Source: an uncultured Candidatus Saccharibacteria bacterium
GTDB lineage: Bacteria > Patescibacteriota > Andersenbacteria > UBA10190
NCBI GenBank assembly: GCA_964359735.1
Contig: CAYHTZ010000008.1
Location: 1-39,821 of the forward strand
DNA length: 39,821 nucleotides
Direction of reading: 5' to 3'
Shown: in pieces, positions 2-10,183 of the stretch
Layout: each line of letters starts with the position of its first letter
Position numbering within the stretch: position 1 is the stretch's first letter
Notes under the pieces: generated by a model
The model's database searches: none
Seen by the model: the letters and a program-made list of their open reading frames with translations, nothing else
Told to the model about the DNA's origin: nothing
Program-made: the position numbers and the translations under genes

Positions 2-3000
2 GGATTGGGTCCAGGTGGAGGTGGTTTGGTTCAGGGTCAAGGCGGCGTCGAGATCGAGGGTGTCTTCGAATTGGGCAAAGTCTAGGGTATCGTCAGTGAT
101 TTCGGCCGCGGCGACGGCACCAGCTGGGAGGACAACTTCGCCGGTGCCGGTGCCATCGGTCGTAAGAGTAATGCTGGTGACATCAGCGCTGCCGATCGTG
201 ATCGCCCCAGCACCAGTAGTGTCGTAGACAGTATCTGCCGCACCAGCGTCATCGGCACCTAAGATGGTAACCGTGCCGGCAGTGTTGCGGATAAAGGTGA
301 AGGTGGCGTCAGCGGCTTCCGCGATATCAATCGAGTCACTGTTGGCACCAGTGATGTCGCCACCGGAGACGGTGAGGTCGCCCGTCACTGTGACATTCCC
401 GACCGTGCCACCATCAGCAACGGTCATCAAATCGTTGCCAGAGGTATCTTCGATGGTGAGTGTACCAGTGGCAAGTTCAGCCAGGCGAATGCCATCTAGT
501 AAGAGGAAGTTAGCACCGGCGTTCAAAGCATTCGTAATATCACCAGCTGAAGCATCAATGGCATCGACAATATCGCCAGCAGTGCCCGACGTAGTCGTAA
601 TCAGAATTGCGTCCGTCACGGCGCTAGCAGTGTTCTCAGCGTTACTGAGACGAATGAGAGCTTCATACGAGCCAGCACCAGCGTTGGCGGTGGCCGCGGA
701 ATTAATAACTAAGCCAAAGACATCGGCATCGGCGTCATTGGCGGTTAAGGTAGTGACAATACTTTCAAAGTCAGTCGCCGCAGTGGCACCATCATTCACG
801 GTAAGAGCCACGTTGATGCCATCCACGGCGGCATTCCCCGCCCCCACATTAATGTCTAAGACACCCGTGGTGGTGGTATTGGCAGTGGTAGAAGCATCAA
901 TCGTCAGGAAGCCAGATGCGGGGAAGGTAAAGTCAATCGTCGAGTCATCTTCGAACAGGGCAACATTCGTAGTCCCGTCTCGAACAGCAAAGTCTCCCGT
1001 AGAGTCAAGATCAACACTGAGAAGATTCGCGCCGAGATTGATGTCAGTGGCAGCGTCTACGTCGAGAGTGTCTTGGAATTGGGCGAAATCGAGGACATCG
1101 TCACCTACGTCGGCGGCGGCAATGGTGCCGTCTAAGATTTCGGTGGAATCAATGCTGCCGGCGGGCAAGGCTACCTCAGCAGTGCCGGTGCCATCGGTAG
1201 TGACGGTGACGCTAGTGACATCCGCAGAACCTATCGTAATAGCATTTGCTCCCCCGGCGTCATAGGTGGTGGCACCGTTGCCGGTAAAGGTGGTGCCGGT
1301 CAGCTGAAGGGTGGTAGCTGTCACATTGACAGTGCCATCGGTATTATTGTCGATAGTCTCATCATTCTGCAGCACGATGTCAGTGGTGACATCGGTGTCA
1401 TCAATATTAATGGCATTGGTGACCCCACCCGCAATGTTGCCAGTATTCACAATGCGTAAGGCATCAGTGACCACGGTGGAGCCGGTGGTGGAGGTGTCGG
1501 CATTGTCAAGAGTGAGAAGCGCGGCCACGGCGTTATCGGTAGCGTTGGTGGTAGCCTGGTTTTGAATGCGCATGGCCGTCTCGGTGTTTCCCGCGATGGT
1601 GGGGTTGTTGGTGAAATTAACGGTCAGGCCAGCAAAATCAGAGTTAGCAGCTGTGCCTTGGGCATTCGTGAGATCAAACTGGATCTGTTGGATGGCAGCA
1701 TCAGAGGTAGCAGTATTGGTGGCGTTGACATCTAAGGCTGTGCCAGTGGTGAGGCTAGTGGCGCTGTAGGTGAGCCCATCAGTGGTGGTGCCGGTGAATG
1801 ATTGGGTCCAGGTGGAGGTGGTTTGGTTCAGGGTCAAGGCGGCATCAAGGTCAAGGGTGTCTTCGAAGCTGTCGAAATCAAGGCTGTCATCGTCAACACT
1901 GATCGTGACTGTGTCGGTTGCTCCCGCGGTGGCGGTAAGATCTGCACCGGTAGCGATGGTGACAGTGTTGCCGTCGGTGATGGTTTGGGAAGTACCGGTA
2001 TCCCCGGCGAGAGTGAAGGAACTCATGCTGCTCGCCGCGCAACTCTGCCACTCAAAATCTCCGGTTGTTGTCTCATAGGTGAGGCATTCTTCGTCAACGG
2101 CGGCGTCGACGGCTTTGAGATCAGCTTCGAGTAAGGTGTCGTCGAGAATTTCGGTTGAGTTAATTGCGCCGGTGGGTAGGCTCACTTCACCGTCGCCCGT
2201 GCCATCGGTGGTGACGGTAAGGGCATCGAGGCCAGCAGAGCCGAGTGTAAGTGTGCCGCTGGCATCAACGCTGTAGGAAGTACCAGTAATAGTATTGGCA
2301 CCGACGTTGAGGGCATTGGTAATGTCAGCAGCGGAGGCGTCGATAGCGTCTACGATGTCCCCCGCTGTCCCAGATGTCGTAGTAATTAAGATAGCGTCGG
2401 TAACGGCGCCGGCGGTGTTTTCGGCGTTCGTTAAGACAATCAGACCTTCATAACTGCCGGCGGCAGCGTTCGTAGTGGCGGCTGAGGATATTACCAGTCC
2501 AAAGAGATCGGCATCAGCGTCGTTAGCAGTGAGAGTAGTGACAATTGCTTCTTGATCCGTGCCGGCGGTGGCACCGTCATTTGAGGTCAAGGCTACATTA
2601 ATACCGTCCACAGCGGCGTTGCCGGCGCCTACATTAATATCAAGTACACCTGTGGTTGTAGTGTTAGCTGTAGTTGAAGCATCAATGGTAAGAAACCCAG
2701 CCGCGGGGAAGGTGACATCAACGGTGGAGTCGTCTTCGAAGAGAACAACATTAGTCGTGCCGTCACGAATGGCGAAGTCGCCAGTGGAGTCGAGATCAAC
2801 TGAGAGAAGATTCGCTCCCAGATTAATGTCAGTGGCAGCATCTACATCCAGGGTGTCTTCGAAGTCCACGAAATCCAGAACGTCATCGGTGATGTTGCTG
2901 CCGCCCACGCCTGAGACGGAAATACTGTGGGCAATGCCTTCGCCCGTGGCGGCACCGGTGGTAGAGATGCCCGAACCAGCGGCAATGGTGGCAACGTAGT

Positions 3001-5704
3001 CACCAGTAGTATCGGTGGTTAAGGCCACGGCGTTAGCGGCTATGGCGAGGGTGCCGGTGGTGCCAATGGTGGCATCGCCGCCCATCACAACCGGGTTAAA
3101 GTTCGTGCCATCCGCCACCAGCACTGCCCCGGACGTATTGGTGGTCATGAATAGGTCGTCGCCGGAGATGGTGAGATCACCGGTCACGGTGGCATTACTG
3201 CTGGTCGTGACAGTGCCAGCCGTTAGCGTGATAGTGCCATCGGTGTTGTTATCAATGGTTTCATCGTTCTGTAAAACGATATCGGTCGTGATGTCAGCGT
3301 CATCAATGTTAATGGCGTTGGTGATACCTCCGGAGATATCACCAGAATTGATGATGCGTAAGGCATTCGTAGCCACGGTGGAGCCGGTCGTGGAGGTATC
3401 AGCATTGTCGAGCGTTAAGAGAGCAGTGACGGCATTGTCGGTGGTGTTCGAGGTGGCTTGGTTTTGTATACGTAGAGCCGTTTCTGTATTGCCCGCAACA
3501 GTCGGGTTATTCGTAAAGTTCACCGTAAGCCCAGCAAAGTTCGTGTTAGCGGCCGTGGCCTGGGCGTTAGTGAGGTCGAACTGCACTTGCTCGATTGCGG
3601 CATCGGCAGTGTGGGTGTTAGTGACATTCACATCAAGGCCAGTACCGGAGGTTAAGGAAGTAGCGCTGTAGGTGAAGCCATCGGTGGTAGTGCCGGTAAA
3701 CGATTGCGTCCAGGTGTTCGTGGTCTGGTTGAGAGTTAAGGCCGCATCGAGGTCGAGGGTGTCTTCGAAGTCCACGAAATCCAGAACGTCATCGGTGATG
3801 TTGCTGCCGCCCACGCCTGAGACGGAAATACTGTGGGCAATGCCTTCGCCCGTGGCGGCACCGGTGGTAGAGATGCCCGAACCAGCGGCAATGGTGGCAA
3901 CGTAGTCACCGGTGGTGTCGGTAGTTAGGGTGACGCTGTTGGCCTGGATTGTGAAAGCACCAGCGCTACTGACATCGACGTCACCCGAAGCATCGACTGG
4001 ATTAAAGTTGGTGCCGTCGGCAACCAGGATGAAGCCAGATGTATTGGTACCCATCACAAGATCATCACCAGAGATGGTAAGGTCGCCAGTTAAGGAAAGG
4101 TTGCCGGTCGTGCCAGCATCGGTGAGTGTCATTAATGTGTTCGTTCCATCGGTAAAAGTAAGGGTAGAAGCGTCTAGAGCAATGGTGTCGGCTAAGCTTG
4201 CACCATCAATTGAGTCTGCCTCCACAGAAATGGTGATGGTATCGGTGGCAGAAGCAACGGAGTTGATGCCCGTGCCGGCGGTGATGGTGAGCGTGTTACC
4301 GTCGCTGATGGTTTGACTGGTGCCGGACTCCCCAGCCACGGTGAACGAGGTCATACCGCCGCTCGAAGTTGACCACGAGAGTTGTCCGGATCCATCGGTA
4401 GTTAAAATTTGGTTAGTGCTACCGTCGGAAGATGGGAGAGTCCATAAGACACTGGAGCTAATAGTGCCCGGAGCTTGGAAGCCGATATAGTTATTTGATC
4501 CGGGTGCGGCAAAGCGAACGTCTGATTGGCCGGTGAGGGTGAGGTTGCCCGACATTTCATCGCCGGTATTGAGCACATAAATATCCTCAATCTGTTTCTC
4601 GTTGAGACAGTTAGTGCAATCTACGCCTCCCACGGTTACCTCTCCGAAATTTTTCCAGACAGGAGTTTGCCCCTTGCCTTGACTCGTAAGCACTTGGTTG
4701 GCATCGCCGGCTTGGCCATCAAGGGTGAGTGTGCCTTGGATGTCGAGTTTTGACCCACCGTGCGCGATAATATTTTTGTCGTGGTCGATAGTGAGAGTAT
4801 CGTGCTCATGGTCGCGCACAACGAACTTGGTTCCATCATCACGCAGATCTATATATAGGTATTCGGCGGGAGCGTAAATGTCGAAGGAGAGGCCGCCTTC
4901 CTTGTCATCAGCAGTAATGGCCCTCTCAATGCCAGGTTGCTGATCATAAATAGACTCGAAGGTTATGCCATGTCTTGCAGAAGTAGTCCCGGCCACGCGG
5001 CTGGCAGATGAAGACGAACCTGGCATCCTCTCTTCACTGGTAGTTATCCCCACTACTTCAGCCATCTGCTCTTCCGATGAGATATCCTGCTCTTCGCTTG
5101 GTTGAGGCTCTATGTTGTCTTTAGCCCACGTGATATAAGAAGGATTCGCTGCTTCCCCTCCTTGCAAAGTAGGCTGGCTAGCCGTCCTACCCCAGGCTGC
5201 CACGGCTACGAGAAAGAGAACTACTGCTGCCACGGCCCAGCGAGGATTGCGAACAAATAGCTTTTTGACTCTTTCAAAAAATGTCCCCGGCCTGGCAATA
5301 GTTTTTGGTCTACTTGGGACACTGTTTAGTAACGGCGCCGCCTTGAGGGCAGATTTTCGCTCGCGCCGACGGGCAGCCGCCACCCTAATGTATTGATGAA
5401 TCGTTTCCTCGGAATAGAGACGCTCTCCCCCTTCACTGCGTTTTGGGGTAAGGAGTCCGTCTTTTTCCAGACGGCGAAGAGTAGAAGCGGAAACCCCCAA
5501 CTTTTTGGCTGCTTCTGAAATGGTCAGGGGCTGTGTGGCCTTCACTCTTTCTAGCTCAGCGACATCAAAATACCGGTTCCTCCCCTTCAGCCGATTGGAG
5601 TGGATGATGCCTTTTTCGTCCCAGCGGCGGATTGTATCTATGGAAACACCAAGCAAGCGGGCAGCTTCCCGGATCGGTACCCAACGAGAGGAGTAAGACT
5701 CCAT
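2..5704 (-). CDS. Giant membrane-anchored protein: 2x MerR/HTH_17-type HTH + TM helix + long repetitive T/D/G/A-rich fibre-like region (3' end outside window)
   Basis: Manual translation from ATG 5704: MESYSSRWVPIREAARLLGVSIDTIRRWDEKG...LTISEAAKKLGVSASTLRRLEKDGLL...; TM WAVAAVVLFLVAVAAW (~5192-5239); NYIGFQAPGTISSSVLWTLPSSDGSTNQILTTDGSGQLSW (~4370-4490). The same frame reads ...TWTQS at positions 2-16. Absent from the ORF track because no stop lies in the window. Confidence 0.9.
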   Translation of the reverse strand, partial: MESYSSRWVPIREAARLLGVSIDTIRRWDEKGIIHSNRLKGRNRYFDVAELERVKATQPLTISEAAKKLGVSASTLRRLEKDGLLTPKRSEGGERLYSEETIHQYIRVAAARRRERKSALKAAPLLNSVPSRPKTIARPGTFFERVKKLFVRNPRWAVAAVVLFLVAVAAWGRTASQPTLQGGEAANPSYITWAKDNIEPQPSEEQDISSEEQMAEVVGITTSEERMPGSSSSASRVAGTTSARHGITFESIYDQQPGIERAITADDKEGGLSFDIYAPAEYLYIDLRDDGTKFVVRDHEHDTLTIDHDKNIIAHGGSKLDIQGTLTLDGQAGDANQVLTSQGKGQTPVWKNFGEVTVGGVDCTNCLNEKQIEDIYVLNTGDEMSGNLTLTGQSDVRFAAPGSNNYIGFQAPGTISSSVLWTLPSSDGSTNQILTTDGSGQLSWSTSSGGMTSFTVAGESGTSQTISDGNTLTITAGTGINSVASATDTITISVEADSIDGASLADTIALDASTLTFTDGTNTLMTLTDAGTTGNLSLTGDLTISGDDLVMGTNTSGFILVADGTNFNPVDASGDVDVSSAGAFTIQANSVTLTTDTTGDYVATIAAGSGISTTGAATGEGIAHSISVSGVGGSNITDDVLDFVDFEDTLDLDAALTLNQTTNTWTQSFTGTTTDGFTYSATSLTSGTGLDVNVTNTHTADAAIEQVQFDLTNAQATAANTNFAGLTVNFTNNPTVAGNTETALRIQNQATSNTTDNAVTALLTLDNADTSTTGSTVATNALRIINSGDISGGITNAINIDDADITTDIVLQNDETIDNNTDGTITLTAGTVTTSSNATVTGDLTISGDDLFMTTNTSGAVLVADGTNFNPVVMGGDATIGTTGTLAIAANAVALTTDTTGDYVATIAAGSGISTTGAATGEGIAHSISVSGVGGSNITDDVLDFVDFEDTLDVDAATDINLGANLLSVDLDSTGDFAIRDGTTNVVLFEDDSTVDVTFPAAGFLTIDASTTANTTTTGVLDINVGAGNAAVDGINVALTSNDGATAGTDQEAIVTTLTANDADADLFGLVISSAATTNAAAGSYEGLIVLTNAENTAGAVTDAILITTTSGTAGDIVDAIDASAADITNALNVGANTITGTSYSVDASGTLTLGSAGLDALTVTTDGTGDGEVSLPTGAINSTEILDDTLLEADLKAVDAAVDEECLTYETTTGDFEWQSCAASSMSSFTLAGDTGTSQTITDGNTVTIATGADLTATAGATDTVTISVDDDSLDFDSFEDTLDLDAALTLNQTTSTWTQSFTGTTTDGLTYSATSLTTGTALDVNATNTATSDAAIQQIQFDLTNAQGTAANSDFAGLTVNFTNNPTIAGNTETAMRIQNQATTNATDNAVAALLTLDNADTSTTGSTVVTDALRIVNTGNIAGGVTNAINIDDTDVTTDIVLQNDETIDNNTDGTVNVTATTLQLTGTTFTGNGATTYDAGGANAITIGSADVTSVTVTTDGTGTAEVALPAGSIDSTEILDGTIAAADVGDDVLDFAQFQDTLDVDAATDINLGANLLSVDLDSTGDFAVRDGTTNVALFEDDSTIDFTFPASGFLTIDASTTANTTTTGVLDINVGAGNAAVDGINVALTVNDGATAATDFESIVTTLTANDADADVFGLVINSAATANAGAGSYEALIRLSNAENTASAVTDAILITTTSGTAGDIVDAIDASAGDITNALNAGANFLLLDGIRLAELATGTLTIEDTSGNDLMTVADGGTVGNVTVTGDLTVSGGDITGANSDSIDIAEAADATFTFIRNTAGTVTILGADDAGAADTVYDTTGAGAITIGSADVTSITLTTDGTGTGEVVLPAGAVAAAEITDDTLDFAQFEDTLDLDAALTLNQTTSTWTQS
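2850..3910. repeat. Exact 155-bp direct repeat inside the giant ORF (2850-3004 and 3756-3910)
   Basis: Base-by-base identical AGGGTGTCTTCGAAGTCC...GCAACGTAGTCACC; offset 906 bp (in frame). Confidence 0.95.
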
Positions 5705-5994: not shown

Positions 5995-6360
5995 TCAACC
6001 CCTCACTTTTGCTCTTGAGGAGGACCCATAGAAGATTTCGCCTAGGATAACTAGGAATCCAGCCACAATGCATATATCAGCCAGGTTAAAGGCAAAGTTC
6101 TTTACTGTAAAAATGTCCAGGACTTGCTGTCGGACAAGAAGGTCGAGAAGGTTGCTACCCCCGCCCCCCACGATAAGAGCTAGGCCGCTGGAAGGATACT
6201 TAGCCAGGCCCCATAGCGCCACGACTGTGACCGCGAGCGCAAGCAGAGGGTGGTAGAGTTCTCCCTGTAAATAAGGAAGATGAAACGCTACGGCAGCAAG
6301 TTTAAGCCCCTGGTCAACAACTACAACACTGATAATGAGAGCCAAGAGGCGCCAACTCAT
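5995..6360 (-). CDS. lspA: Lipoprotein signal peptidase II (short form)
   Basis: DQxxK near the N-terminus, GGGGSNLLD, VLDIF and FNLAD catalytic motifs; hydrophobic. Confidence 0.85.
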   Translation of the reverse strand: MSWRLLALIISVVVVDQGLKLAAVAFHLPYLQGELYHPLLALAVTVVALWGLAKYPSSGLALIVGGGGSNLLDLLVRQQVLDIFTVKNFAFNLADICIVAGFLVILGEIFYGSSSRAKVRG

Positions 6361-6701
6361 GTAACGAGGGTGGTAGCGGCAGGGTTAGCGTGCAGGCGCT
6401 TTTCGGGGATAATCTCGCCTTTATCAGTAAGGCCGTATTTGCCTTCGGCGATACGGCTCAAGGCGGCATTCACTTCTCGGAGGCGTGCTTCCTTAGCCTC
6501 GGTGACGGCTGATTTAGCGGTGTAATCGGCAATTTCAGTAGCATTATCCTCTTCTCCCTGGCCATAAACCGGGAAATCGGCCACATAATTACCTTCTTGT
6601 TTGTGGGCACTGCCACCCAGCTCTTGCTCAAGGCGGCTCTTCTCTTCTTCTAAGAGGCGCCTCATTTCGGCTATAAACTCATCAGAATGGGCTTTAGGCA
6701 T
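6357..6701 (-). CDS. DksA/TraR family protein (no Cys4 zinc finger)
   Basis: Coiled coil with EEDNATE tip and ALSRIAEGKYG...IPEKRLHANPAAT. Start reassigned to ATG 6701 (MPKAHS), which has TACACT 6 nt upstream. Confidence 0.85.
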   Translation of the reverse strand: MPKAHSDEFIAEMRRLLEEEKSRLEQELGGSAHKQEGNYVADFPVYGQGEEDNATEIADYTAKSAVTEAKEARLREVNAALSRIAEGKYGLTDKGEIIPEKRLHANPAATTLVT

Positions 6702-6715
6702 GGGTTTAGTGTATT

Positions 6716-6769
6716 CCTTCGCCCGGCCGTCGCCAAGGCTATGGCCGGCAGGCGAGGCTACGCGGGGCA
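6716..6769. repeat. Nested palindromic mini-repeat (element within element)
   Basis: CCTTCGC[CCGGCCGTCGCCAAGGCTATGGCCGGCAGGC]GAGGCTACGCGGGGCA. Confidence 0.75.
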
Positions 6770-6779
6770 TTTTGGCGGC

Positions 6780-6835
6780 AAAATGAAAAAGGCCATCAAG
6801 AGCCAAATAGAAAGTTTATAGGGCCGATGGCCTTT
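6780..6835 (-). terminator. Terminator-like hairpin followed by a U-tract on the minus strand
   Basis: Minus strand: AAAGGCCATC...GATGGCCTTTTTCATTTT. Confidence 0.5.
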
Positions 6836-7345
6836 AAGCTCGCGCTAAAAGCCATCATATCGCCTATTCTGTCTGACCTTGTAGGGGGAAACAAGATCAG
6901 ACTGATAAGGCGATCGATAGCAATTTTACAAGCGTGAGCTGTGTGCATCTCTCATCCCCTTCTGCATGGGATAAGATTCCTTGACTGCGATTGCGGATTC
7001 GGTAGAGGCGGTATGTTTGTGCCTCACCATCTCCGCGGCAATGAACGAATGAACAAACGCGTGTTTGATCATATGTTTGTGTTTGCTATGTGAGGCCTGT
7101 GCAGGCAGGCACGTCCTCGCAGCAAAGGGGGTACTCTCTTTCACAAGGAAAGGAAGTACGGTTAGGGAGTATAGGGGGACATACTCCCTAAGCGCACCTC
7201 CTATCTAGGAAAGAAAATACTGAAGTGGGTTGGGAAGGAACTAATCTGGGGGCCTGGAGTGCTGTACACGAGGTATGCTCACCAGGTCCCAAAAAGCTTA
7301 TTTGTCTTGCTTTTTTGTGTTTTAGGCTGATTTAGCCTACTTGTA
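6785..7345 (-). ncRNA. Candidate large structured ncRNA (~560 nt), family unrecognised; strand assigned from promoter
   Basis: About 10 consecutive hairpins, no convincing ORF, upstream TTGATC-17-TATAAT promoter and downstream hairpin plus U-tract. Confidence 0.6.
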
Positions 7346-7351
7346 AAGCTA

Positions 7352-7380
7352 ATTATAGCACGTCGTTGACAGGGGATCAA
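7352..7380 (-). promoter_or_regulatory. sigma70 promoter TTGATC-N17-TATAAT with extended TG
   Basis: Plus-strand ATTATA at 7352-7357, GCA at 7358-7360, GATCAA at 7375-7380. Confidence 0.8.
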
Positions 7381-7437
7381 ACTAAGTAAACCTCAAGTTG
7401 TACACAATCAGTGTTAACAACTTTTGCTGCACTTTTT

Positions 7438-7474
7438 CACCCCGGGAGAGGAATCCAGTTCCACTCCCGGGGTG
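7438..7474. other. GC-rich stem-loop downstream of dinG
   Basis: CACCCCGGGAG / CTCCCGGGGTG 11-bp perfect inverted repeat; no U-tract on the dinG strand. Confidence 0.6.
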
Positions 7475-7489
7475 TTTATAAGATCAGCA

Positions 7490-7527
7490 CCCCGCGAAGC
7501 CCCGCCAGCCGGCGGGGCGAAGTGGGG
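7490..7527. repeat. Nested palindromic mini-repeat
   Basis: CCCCGCGAAGC[CCCGCCAGCCGGCGGG]GCGAAGTGGGG. Confidence 0.75.
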
Positions 7528-7573
7528 TTATTCGGGGAGCCCCGCTGCCGCCACCCGTTCCCCCCTCAAATTT

Positions 7574-10183
7574 TTAGAGTGTCTTTTGCCAGCGAGTGAT
7601 GGTTTCGGGACCAAAGTGCTCTTCAATTTTTTGGGGAAGTTCATGCTCCGCAACTACTTCCACCGGAGCCGGGGGAAGAGCGTGGAGTACACCTCGCCCA
7701 TATTTTTTTTCGAGCAACCTTTTATCCAAAAGGATGACTACCCCCCGATCAGTGGTGGCGCGAATCAGGCGGCCGACTCCTTGTTTCAGCCGGAGTGTCA
7801 TGCGGGGAAGCATCACTTTTTCGAAAGAGTTCGTGCCGGCTTGTTCGGATAACCCTTCGATAATGGGATCAGTGGGTTGGGAGAAGGGAAGCTTCGGGAT
7901 CACTAGCACAGAAAGAGTTTCCCCGGGACTATCAAAGCCATCCCAAAAACTATGAGTCCCAAGCAGTATGCTAGAGTGCTCATCTCGGAAGCGCCTGGCG
8001 ATATTATGCCTGCCTCCTGATATTTTCTGAGAGAGCAACCTGGTTTTGCCTCTATTAAGAATAGAAGTAAGCATCTCATGAACCGCCCCGACGCTGGCCT
8101 GAGACGTAAAGAGAGCCAGTAGCCTGCCGCGAGTGACTGCGCCTACTTTTCCAATTACTTGAGCGACGAACTGGTCGAATCCGCTACTCCCTGCTAAGGG
8201 GCCGTCTTCGACAACGAATATGCGCATTTGATCGCGGAAATCATAGGGGCTTTCAAACTCTACGGTCGGCCAATCAAAGATGCCAAAGCGCTCCTTTATA
8301 TAGTCAAAGCCCGTTTCGGTGCTCAGAGTGGCCGAAATGAGGATAGTGGGCTGAATCATACCCAGACACTCAGTGGTATAGGGGGCAATACTAAGGGCAG
8401 CATCGTGGAAGCTTACCTCTTCACTGGCGGGATCTTGCTCTATCCATTGCACCCGCTCACGGCTCTTAGGGTTTACGATGTCCTCAAGCTCTAGCCGGAA
8501 CTTCTCTATTTGCCTGATCGCTTCTCTATAGAGCGTCATTTCTTCTTTTTTCACTGACTTCTCTTGAGAGCGTGCCAGCCCCAGCAGGAAAGAAATACGA
8601 CTCAGGCAGTTTACCCCTGATTCTTTTAGCTCGTGAAATAGCCGGCTGCGGCGTAGCGTAGGCGAGAGCCTCAGGCGAGTCTCTTCTCCCCCATGAGAGT
8701 GAAGCAGGAGAGCCCCACGATCTTGGAGTAGGTCGAACTGTTTTAGGAGCGAGGTGGTTTCTTCACTAATTTTTTCATGACCAACAAAGCTTCGGAGAGT
8801 CTTCAGCAGTTCGGCAAGTACACCGGCAGAAAGTACCACTTCGCTGGCGGCCGTTGCCGCATCTTCCAGCTGGTGCCCTTCATCAACAATGAGAAGGCTG
8901 TAGTCACTCCCGAGGCGATCTTCTCCCGGGGAGGCGTGGAGCAAAAGGGCATGGTTCACGACAGTGATGTCGGCTGACTGAGCTGCTTCTCGGGAGCGCT
9001 GGTATGGGCAGTTCTCACAGCGCCGGGTGCAAGCGGCTGTATTCGCCGTAAGAGCCTGAATGAGCCATGGAGGCTGGTGAGAGAGATTCAGGCGTTCAAT
9101 GTCGCCGCTGCCTCCCCTCTCCAGCCACAACAGTACTTTTAGTAGTATCCAAGCCTCAGACGGCGAGAAGCGTTTGCCCTCGAGTAATTTTCTGAGCCTC
9201 GTTCCGCACACGTAATTGCGCCTTCCTTTCAAAGTAGCCACGCTCCGCTCGACCCCCAGGCTGGCCAGCAATGCGGGGATATCCTTTTCGACGAGCTGAT
9301 CTTGGAGTACGCGGGTGTGGGTAGAGATGAGGGTGCGTCCGCTACTCTGTAGGGCGCTCGCAAGATAGGCAAACGTCTTACCTATACCTGAAGGCGCTTC
9401 AATAATGGCGGAGGTTTTTTTGGCGATACTCTCCGATATATACTCGCTGAGGCGAACTTGCTCTGCCCGCGCAGTAAAGCCGGCGAGGGATTTCTCTAGC
9501 TTTCCTCCTGGTCCAAGTACTGAGGCAACTGAGACTTCCTTTGCATCAGGTTTCCCGGCTATCTTTGGCTTCCTTACTATCTTTTCAGGCATCTCATAAC
9601 CGCCTGGAGTGAAGAGAGGCAGATAGTGCAGCTGGCCACTTCCCTGCAGGATATGCTTCACCTTTTCTTTCAGGCTGGCAGAAATTTTTAGGTTCTCACG
9701 AATCTTCTGTAAGAGCTTCCACGTGAGTACGATATCTGCGCCGGCGCGGTGCTCGCCGGTTACCGTGATGCCTAGGTCTTTGGCGAGCGTACCCAGGTTG
9801 TAGCTATCGGCTTCCGGCCACGTGACAGCCGCCAGCGGGAAGGTATCCCAGACTGGCTGCGGGAGACGGCAGCCGTGGGTATGTAACCAGGAAAGATCGA
9901 AGGGAGCATTGTGGGCAAAGAGGGTATCTTCTCCTACGAACTTTTGTACCTGTTCAATGTGTTCCGAAAATGGCGCCATGCCTTCAACCATGGCGCCTGT
10001 TATCCCCGTAATAGCGGTAGTTTCTAGAGTTATGGGGCGGCTGGGGCGGCAGAGGACCTCAAAGCGGTTAAGCTCACGGCCTTCTTCCAGATCAAAGCGG
10101 ATGGCAGCTACTTCGATAATCTCCCCTGCTTTCGGGTCGAGAGCAGTGGTTTCGATGTCTATTCCCACCACAGTTTTCACCAT
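7574..10183 (-). CDS. dinG: DnaQ-like exonuclease / DinG family helicase fusion
   Basis: DIETT, HNAPFD, HRAGAD (DEDDh exonuclease); APSGIGKT, four Cys (Fe-S), DEGH, QGVGRLIR. Confidence 0.92.
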   Translation of the reverse strand: MVKTVVGIDIETTALDPKAGEIIEVAAIRFDLEEGRELNRFEVLCRPSRPITLETTAITGITGAMVEGMAPFSEHIEQVQKFVGEDTLFAHNAPFDLSWLHTHGCRLPQPVWDTFPLAAVTWPEADSYNLGTLAKDLGITVTGEHRAGADIVLTWKLLQKIRENLKISASLKEKVKHILQGSGQLHYLPLFTPGGYEMPEKIVRKPKIAGKPDAKEVSVASVLGPGGKLEKSLAGFTARAEQVRLSEYISESIAKKTSAIIEAPSGIGKTFAYLASALQSSGRTLISTHTRVLQDQLVEKDIPALLASLGVERSVATLKGRRNYVCGTRLRKLLEGKRFSPSEAWILLKVLLWLERGGSGDIERLNLSHQPPWLIQALTANTAACTRRCENCPYQRSREAAQSADITVVNHALLLHASPGEDRLGSDYSLLIVDEGHQLEDAATAASEVVLSAGVLAELLKTLRSFVGHEKISEETTSLLKQFDLLQDRGALLLHSHGGEETRLRLSPTLRRSRLFHELKESGVNCLSRISFLLGLARSQEKSVKKEEMTLYREAIRQIEKFRLELEDIVNPKSRERVQWIEQDPASEEVSFHDAALSIAPYTTECLGMIQPTILISATLSTETGFDYIKERFGIFDWPTVEFESPYDFRDQMRIFVVEDGPLAGSSGFDQFVAQVIGKVGAVTRGRLLALFTSQASVGAVHEMLTSILNRGKTRLLSQKISGGRHNIARRFRDEHSSILLGTHSFWDGFDSPGETLSVLVIPKLPFSQPTDPIIEGLSEQAGTNSFEKVMLPRMTLRLKQGVGRLIRATTDRGVVILLDKRLLEKKYGRGVLHALPPAPVEVVAEHELPQKIEEHFGPETITRWQKTL

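Follow-up and report, generated by a model that had tools for sequence, protein, structure and literature searches.

What might a bacterium with a genome of 1.12 Mb keep in 871 nt between two neighbouring genes? We address this question for a stretch of DNA from Candidatus Andersenbacteria (Patescibacteria; candidate phyla radiation, CPR), namely contig C8 (CAYHTZ010000008.1; 39,821 nt, the whole of which we call the window) of an assembly in 41 contigs that is rated 100% complete. The intergenic gap at 6702–7573, which is very large for a genome of such size, separates a DinG-like gene from a gene related to DksA and YteA, and an initial annotation of the window had placed in it a large, highly structured non-coding RNA (ncRNA). 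Here we report that this gap very probably holds a real, independently transcribed, single-copy gene for a structured ncRNA of ~560 nt, whose family is absent from Rfam 15. Of the 17 sequencing runs listed as containing the stretch, 0 are on record as RNA; the DNA runs among them are groundwater metagenomes.

A structured transcription unit on the minus strand

Read on the minus strand, positions 7345–6785 fold at −220.1 kcal/mol, compared with −143.0 ± 6.6 kcal/mol for 100 shuffled sequences (z = −11.67, with 0 shuffles as good), and the plus strand of the same interval reaches z = −6.65. This comparison had been named beforehand as a check on the proposed ~560-nt interval, and its outcome bears out the description of that interval as highly structured.

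Transcription would start at a strong extended −10 promoter of the sigma-70 type and stop at an intrinsic terminator belonging to the RNA itself, giving a transcript of ~559 nt (6787–7345, minus strand) whose 5′ end is placed from the −10 box and whose 3′ end is placed from the U-tract, with fold, collinearity and covariation in support. The promoter (7352–7380, minus strand), located by a scan and in homologues, comprises a −35 element TTGATC (7380–7375), a 17-nt spacer with TG, and a −10 element TATAAT (7357–7352). Scanning 6300–7800 returned one site where 0.9 would be expected by chance, and this sole promoter-like site is the TTGATC-17-TGnTATAAT that had been described as pointing into the interval. 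The same arrangement (TTGACC/TTGACA, 17-nt spacer, TG, TATAMT) is present in 35 of the 43 homologues with enough upstream sequence, 34 of them having the TG.

At the other end lies the predicted terminator (6786–6835, minus strand; alignment counts and nhmmer), in which an outer stem, AAAGGCCAUC/GAUGGCCUUU, encloses a nested hairpin and is followed by a U-tract. The outer stem is paired in 89% of alignment cells, with 5 of 7 pairs changed on both sides, and two of its pairs vary among relatives as GC:17/CG:9 and AU:12/GC:8/CG:6; the hairpin and U-tract ending proposed for the RNA is thus both conserved and covarying. Our terminator scan missed it because the loop, which contains the nested hairpin, is longer than the scanner allows. 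R1, a covariance model built on the rod region, reaches 98.3 bits with the minus strand versus 40.6 bits with the plus strand, and G-U pairs are frequent in the alignment (GU:21, UG:19, GU:13), which fixes the strand as minus, since such pairs would be mismatches on the other strand. The conserved promoter, the covarying terminator and the strand-specific R1 scores support the proposal of a stand-alone minus-strand transcript that, going by these sequence signals, probably has a promoter and a terminator of its own.

Domain architecture of the RNA

From 5′ to 3′ the RNA would be organised as P1, an A/C-rich linker, P2, a P3/P4 rod bearing a UCCCCCU loop, a central domain closed by P6 that contains a second linker, P10, P11 and the terminator (all coordinates on the minus strand). 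Several hairpins of the initial annotation recur among these elements: 6788–6835 is the terminator, 6837–6940 is P11, 7162–7191 is P4, 7247–7291 is P2 and 7323–7339 is P1.

The 5′ hairpin P1 (UAGGCU/AGCCUA, 7323–7339) is paired in 83% of cells of a 29-sequence alignment, with 3 of 5 pairs changed on both sides. It is followed by the A/C-rich linker 1 (AAACACAAAAAAGCAAGACAAAUAAG, 7295–7322), which is unpaired in the minimum-free-energy fold and of which a AAACAAAACAAGCAAAACAAAC-like sequence is kept in relatives. P2 (7245–7293) has a conserved internal loop (GAG..GCG..ACAGCA) and is seen in single-sequence folds of relatives, which give other outer-stem sequences at the same place; by MAFFT column counts it is unsupported, at 48–50% paired, in a part of the alignment that is visibly out of register. 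The rod domain (7151–7202), supported by covariation, consists of P3 (7202–7193 with 7160–7151) enclosing P4 (7190–7181 with 7172–7163), whose apical loop at 7180–7173 (GUCCCCCU) carries UCCCCCU. Cells in the rod are 97.8% paired, and 12 of its 20 pairs show a change in both partners. Segment C, comprising GAAAGAGAGUAC and the preceding loop (7131–7150), has two complements, the 3′ strand of P3 and a stretch upstream of P3.

The central domain (6979–7128) is closed by the long-range, 12-bp helix P6 (7128–7117 with 6990–6979), which again shows covariation: 95.4% of cells are paired and 9 of 12 pairs are changed on both sides. A local hairpin, CCUU..GAGG, which was 'P6' in our first model, was replaced by this long-range helix, found by RNAalifold. 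Within the domain lie GGACGU, P7 (7110–7107 with 7098–7095; 97.4% paired, 3 of 4 pairs changed on both sides), the A/C-rich linker 2 (~7094–7068), P8 and P9 (7036–7033 with 6996–6993; 99.1% paired). P10 (6947–6976), a hairpin with a conserved A-GCAG-nAGG loop, is seen in the alignment with weak column counts of 54–58% paired. P11 (6838–6939), a 104-nt irregular rod, contains three helix segments that are 92–97% paired, with 21 of 23 pairs changed on both sides. The apex of P11 carries a second loop, UUUCCCCCUA (6891–6882), that is nearly identical to the P4 loop and is found only here and in the closest relative, L069.

Compensatory changes in three alignments

Covariation was counted in an alignment of 29 full-length homologues (A4), with the structure taken from RNAalifold, in 34 core sequences, and in 20 rods from across families that were chosen for having the UCCCCCU loop. 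RNAalifold on A4 gives 63 pairs, 46 of them with compensatory changes (28.7 in shuffles); 96.1% of the cells at these pairs are paired, compared with 80.3% in shuffles and 40–44% in slid controls, and 300 cells are doubly changed, compared with 83.7 in shuffles, with 0 of 500 shuffles reaching any of these measures. In the core sequences, 15 pairs are changed on both sides versus 3.7 in shuffles, and the cross-family rods are 90.1% paired versus 62.7%, with 125 doubly changed cells versus 43.7. The same holds for all three alignments, where 0 of 500 shuffles reach the observed paired fraction, number of doubly changed cells or covariation score, the shuffle control being one that ignores relatedness among the sequences. 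Slid controls over the three alignments are 40–56% paired compared with 90–96% for the structure, a contrast that is inflated, to the detriment of our reading, by deriving the structure from the alignment that is counted, with margins that are still very large.

The covariation check proposed for this locus therefore came out strongly, on full-length, core and cross-family sequences, and the compensatory changes exceed those of the controls, as would be asked of any structured ncRNA gene. We dropped duplicate rows (L052, L053 and L058, which duplicate L017, and L068, which duplicates L057) and L015, which is nearly identical to L016. A further alignment, A3, mixes sense and antisense matches, and there the best match per source was counted, leaving 45 distinct rows.

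No match to known RNA families and no conserved reading frame

Searched with Rfam 15 (4227 models), the window yields tRNAs alone at gathering scores, and within 6600–7700 the best match is mir-21 with 20.4 bits against a cut-off of 52 bits (E = 0.09), which is chance level. Sixteen loci of the same family and 15 loci of other families gave nothing except tRNA and chance matches, leaving the RNA without a match to any known family in the window or at these 31 related loci. The initial annotation had set aside RNase P RNA, transfer-messenger RNA (tmRNA) and signal recognition particle (SRP) RNA; consistent with this, the first two are encoded elsewhere in the genome (C1:61285–61754, 197.2 bits, and C11:6482–6883, 81.9 bits), and the SRP models are unmatched even at E ≤ 10. 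We also looked for a conserved translated open reading frame (ORF), and found none shared among the 29 homologues: ORFs of at least 30 codons, on both strands, have no common ends or frames, and one homologue is without a sense ORF.

Distribution in the family and the phylum

A DNA search of 61 related genomes matched 33, with matches to the RNA body confined to the family of this genome, f1 (28 of 34 genomes), and the rest falling in two short GC-rich repeats on either side of the RNA. Sensitive blastn recovered collinear blocks from 7322 to 6769 of the window, nearly the whole described interval, and the related loci have an ORF-free gap of 470–1600 nt before a DksA-like gene of ~113 aa and lspA. 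A motif scan added four species genomes and 17 non-redundant metagenome contigs; of its 17 matches in genome contigs, 13 duplicate loci already in the set, and among viral contigs it gave 0 matches. The RNA body is single-copy in its own genome, and with R1 each positive genome has a single locus; the positives are 29 of 34 species of f1 and the genome studied here, with 0 of 6 in the sister family f2 and 0 of 1 in the sister family f3. Its five misses in f1 comprise three genomes that are 76–80% complete and two 100%-complete genomes of the genus g2. In a phylum sample of 151 genomes, R1 matched eight, namely the own genome, 6 of 6 f1 genomes and one weak match (E = 0.004); R1 is too narrow to gauge the spread of the RNA.

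Loci from f2 and f3 were retrieved through the DksA-like protein. Just ahead of the DksA-like gene, 4 of the 5 loci carry the same terminator module (nhmmer); also present are the central A/C-rich block in 2 of 5 plus one weak match, a strong promoter, and a long hairpin with a different stem and the same UCCCCCU loop. The same type of hairpin occurs upstream of DksA-like genes in four other families, and a strict hairpin pattern is found in 9 of 401 genomes, compared with 0 for the reversed control. A rod model, R2, built from the 20-rod cross-family alignment, matches 18 of the 151 genomes of the phylum sample: the own genome, f1 (5/6), f9 (2/2, weak), f11 (4/4), f15 (2/2) and one genome each in f36, f49, f53 and f61. 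Divergent members of the RNA family thus occur in both sister families and in seven or more other families of the phylum, a wider spread than could be known from a single sequence. Our analysis as a whole supports the suggestion of a new class of large ncRNA. Features shared across families are a TTGACA-17-TGnTATAAT promoter, the C5-loop rod, a CAAAAACAAAAACAAAA-like linker, further domains and a terminator, usually with a DksA-like gene downstream. Structured, ORF-free regions of 450–650 nt also lie upstream of the DksA-like gene in f7, f21, f37 and f39, those of f37 and f39 carrying an A5C linker and that of f21 a strong promoter; none of the four has an R2 match.

An invariant C-rich loop and a conserved neighbour

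Among the 20 cross-family sequences, which were chosen for that loop, UCCCCCU is invariant in 20 of 20, and the stems differ. In the genera of f1 other than g2, the loop and both P4 strands are invariant and the flanking P3 covaries; in other families the stem is replaced and the loop alone survives. Invariance of the loop, and within the family also of the P4 strands, next to covarying neighbours points to recognition by a macromolecule.

The gene that follows the RNA (6357–6701, minus strand) is its conserved downstream neighbour and encodes a protein of 114 aa without cysteine, most likely starting at the ATG at 6701, a corrected start that sets the lower bound of the gap. This protein matches TIGR02890 yteA (E = 1.1e-14; 54.8 bits, below the 134.4 cut-off) and DksA_like (E = 1.4e-8, below its cut-off), has no Pfam match at 0.001, and reaches just E = 0.34 with the Pfam zinc-finger model; judged by its sequence, we class it as a zinc-finger-less member of the DksA/TraR/YteA group. 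A DksA-like gene lies downstream of the RNA in f1, f2, f3, f11, f15, f36, f53 and f61, and among the 10 R2-positive genomes outside f1 in which the protein was looked for as well, 8 have the RNA 0.4–3 kb upstream of the gene on the same strand. This conserved position points to the DksA/YteA-like protein, to RNA polymerase, or to regulation in cis.

In L062, L065, L034, L066 and L056, an extended −10 (TGTATAGT, TATAAT, TGTATACT) was seen by eye 7–12 nt before the ATG of the DksA-like gene, with no Shine-Dalgarno sequence, which suggests leaderless mRNAs for the DksA-like protein in these relatives.

A proposed role and the evidence against it

We propose that the C-rich loop, held out by the rigid rod, and the unpaired A/C-rich linkers would be contacted by a macromolecular partner. 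Foremost among the candidates is the cysteine-less DksA/YteA-like protein encoded downstream and, through it, RNA polymerase, a putative assignment; alternatively, the C-rich loop may pair with G-rich RNA. That the RNA acts in trans, as an abundant ribonucleoprotein or as a regulatory RNA, is the likeliest mechanism we can offer, yet a tentative one, which we would expect to fail sooner than to hold. For the explanation taken as a whole, a stand-alone RNA with a trans-acting mechanism, the balance of the evidence is mildly favourable.

Several observations weigh against this reading. P2, P10 and the inner terminator hairpin, at 48–58% paired by columns, are likely but unproven helices. In genus g2 (L089–L100), P4 differs in sequence and in loop (UUCCG, GUCCG, GACC), with compensatory changes in the stem, so that the otherwise invariant loop appears to be dispensable or replaced in one lineage, and R1 matches nothing in the g2 genomes G018 and G022. 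Of 101 genomes sampled from the phylum, 49 encode the DksA-like protein, many of them without a detectable RNA, and 11 of 25 further DksA-like loci have upstream gaps shorter than 300 nt. A crude scan for AGGGGG before start codons gave no enrichment. Transcription, the RNA ends and abundance are deduced from the DNA, and both the partner and the function, including the putative binding to the DksA-like protein or RNA polymerase, are likewise deductions.

Alternative explanations

Could the RNA derive, by extreme divergence or expansion, from a known housekeeping RNA such as 6S or SRP RNA? Both are undetected anywhere in the 100%-complete genome, and the neighbouring gene encodes a relative of an RNA-polymerase-binding factor. 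However, RF00013, RF00169 and RF01854 show no similarity in the region even at E ≤ 10, and the RNA, with a multi-domain fold of ~560 nt, is three times the length of the ~180-nt 6S rod and has no obvious central bubble, so that we regard this origin as very unlikely. The 6S model gave no match in the own genome at E ≤ 0.001, and since a control search was positive in just 5 of 14 named genomes, it is insensitive; a 6S-like function, as distinct from membership of the 6S family, is compatible with our data. For SRP RNA, neither RF00169 nor RF01854 matches in the own genome, which also has no SRP_SPB domain, an SRP54 domain of just 21 bits, no tblastn match to E. coli Ffh below E = 1, and no detected Ffh/FtsY NG domain. 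Among 61 related genomes, 0 matched either SRP RNA or the Ffh M domain (SRP_SPB), which would leave an SRP RNA without its partner, and loss of SRP subunits in many CPR bacteria has already been reported (PMC8080830); the signal-recognition-particle genes in another study are those of the host and not of TM7x (PMC10768705). With Ffh and FtsY missing too, identity as SRP RNA was dropped. The possibility that unrelated palindromes (REP/MITE-like repeats or stacked terminators) have piled up here, or that a small protein gene is hidden in the interval, is by now largely refuted and, to our minds, scarcely credible. It could draw on the two short GC-rich repeats that flank the RNA (7487–7530 and 6716–6760) and recur in many genomes, and on ORFs of 30–99 codons that can be drawn on either strand; yet the RNA body is single-copy in its own genome and in relatives, conservation is collinear over ~550 nt, a 12-bp long-range helix spans ~230 nt with compensatory changes, and the ORF boundaries and frames are not common to the homologues, one of which is without a 30-codon sense ORF.

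The remaining alternatives accept the RNA and concern how it works. The element might be an outsized leader or attenuator that acts in cis on the DksA-like/lspA operon, its terminator setting read-through from the strong promoter. Its same-strand position immediately upstream of the DksA-like gene in many families, with the terminator ending just 19–35 nt before the start codon in the sister family, fits such an arrangement. The initial annotation had given the dksA-like gene a −10 of its own in this window, but the promoter scan found none, which also speaks for a leader. Segment C could pair with the 3′ strand of P3, and 9 of the 10 pairs show compensatory changes, the signature expected of alternative helices, but this alternative lies 350 nt from the terminator and has a predicted stability that is lower by an average of 9.5 kcal/mol, with P3 favoured in 33 of 34 sequences. 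A riboswitch-like switch between P3 and a B:C helix, both of which show compensatory changes, is disfavoured by this energy difference; segment C may extend the rod by pairing upstream of P3 instead. Against a leader also stand the extended −10 seen by eye 7–12 nt before the ATG in many relatives, which suggests that the gene has its own promoter and a leaderless mRNA, the loci of G127, G115 and G104, where the RNA lies 0.9–3 kb from the gene with other sequence between, and a length of ~560 nt with many conserved domains, which far exceeds any known leader; we consider a leader function improbable. We would place at about the same low level a base-pairing regulator akin to RNAIII or RsaE, the C-rich apical loop of which would pair with G-rich, Shine-Dalgarno-like sequences in mRNAs. 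Gram-positive bacteria without Hfq use C-rich loops, and a gene for Hfq was looked for here and not found; UCCCCCU is invariant in the apical loop of a long rod across families, and P11 of this genome bears the loop a second time, at its apex. But in the crude scan AGGGGG precedes a start codon no more often than GGAGG or other G-rich words do (0.18 versus 0.18), genus g2 does without the C5 loop, and the invariance of both P4 strands within the family suggests that the helix is recognised too, and not a seed alone. Hfq had also been considered as a binder of the (A5C)n linker, a candidate that fell with the failure to find Hfq.

Surroundings of the RNA gene

The genes around the RNA are all on the minus strand, in the order DinG-like gene, gap, DksA/YteA-like gene, lspA-like gene and a giant ORF. 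The upstream neighbour (7574–10183) encodes a DinG-like exonuclease-helicase (Pfam RNase_T, Helicase_C_2 and DEAD_2), and DinG is kept upstream in 5 of the 19 related loci that reach that far. An lspA-like gene lies downstream of the DksA/YteA-like gene and is followed by the giant ORF of more than 1901 aa (2–5704), which runs off the window end.

Two dispersed elements flank the RNA. The first, at 7487–7530, separates the end of dinG from the promoter of the RNA; it is a GC-rich nested hairpin (CCCCGCCGGCTGGCGGGGCTTCGCGGGG-like) that recurs many times, with 85–98% identity, in this genome and in those of other genera, and either a dispersed repeat or a shared terminator could account for it. 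The second, at 6716–6760, lies past the RNA terminator and ahead of the dksA-like start and consists of a hairpin, GCCGGCC..GGCCGGGC, followed by GAAGGA; cores of ~30 nt occur at several sites with 88–97% identity in a number of related genomes, up to ~7 being listed per genome (for example G021 and G036). In this genome the latter element provides the Shine-Dalgarno-like sequence of the dksA-like gene.

Discussion

We are highly confident that this RNA is real and represents a new class of large structured ncRNA. No description of it was found in the searchable full-text literature, a scope outside which subscription journals and supplementary files fall, nor by a term search within one preprint (bioRxiv 10.64898/2026.10.21.760802).

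In its size class of ~600 nt and its many conserved helices with invariant nucleotides, the RNA resembles OLE RNA (RF01071), ROOL, GOLLD and raiA, and like OLE and other ornate RNAs it is lineage-restricted, single-copy and linked to a particular protein gene, with a function that is not evident from sequence. OLE is linked to the oapA gene, and ROOL and GOLLD are often prophage-linked. The RNA described here differs from these in having no match to their Rfam models, a host in the Patescibacteria and no membrane-protein neighbour, and, unlike ROOL and GOLLD, it has 0 matches in viral contigs. 6S RNA and the Ms1 RNA of mycobacteria are abundant stand-alone RNAs that act on RNA polymerase. The present RNA would be alike if it is stand-alone and abundant; the gene beside it encodes a relative of polymerase-binding factors, and the genome yields no match to 6S RNA. 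It differs from 6S in being three times longer, in not matching RF00013 and in having no rod with a central bubble resembling an open promoter, and its link to polymerase is drawn from the gene neighbourhood alone.

C-rich apical loops are conserved functional elements of Staphylococcus RNAIII and of RsaE/RoxS, which the RNA recalls in that loop and, in the case of RNAIII, in a multi-hairpin form of ~500 nt; there is no homology, and the RNA has no coding part and no enrichment of sites in the crude scan. In Bacillus, ileS with its T-box leader occupies the place upstream of ylyA-lspA. Like the Firmicutes ileS-ylyA-lspA leaders, the RNA precedes a DksA/YteA-like gene and lspA and ends in a terminator, but it is about twice as long as T-box leaders, has no Rfam cis-regulatory match and no recognised tRNA-binding features, and the downstream gene seems, by eye, to have its own promoter in many relatives.

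A bolder and rather unlikely version of our proposal would make the RNA a subunit of a Patescibacteria-specific ribonucleoprotein that acts with the DksA/YteA-like protein on RNA polymerase and replaces 6S, or else a catalytic RNA; UCCCCCU would then be the contact, and regions of the f7/f21/f37/f39 type would be diverged members of an ancient, phylum-wide RNA.

Large, intricately folded bacterial RNAs of unknown function are rare, and each has opened new biochemistry; to our knowledge, no example from the candidate phyla radiation has been described. With our alignments and the covariance models R1 and R2, other data can be searched for the RNA family, and its helices, compact and rich in covariation, recommend it for cryo-electron microscopy. 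The rod with its invariant loop and the fixed place beside the DksA/YteA-like gene across distant families offer two handles on its biology, a binding partner and a link to RNA polymerase. That a non-coding gene of 560 nt with a near-consensus promoter is kept in a genome of ~1 Mb with almost no spare DNA implies an important role for the RNA in these bacteria.

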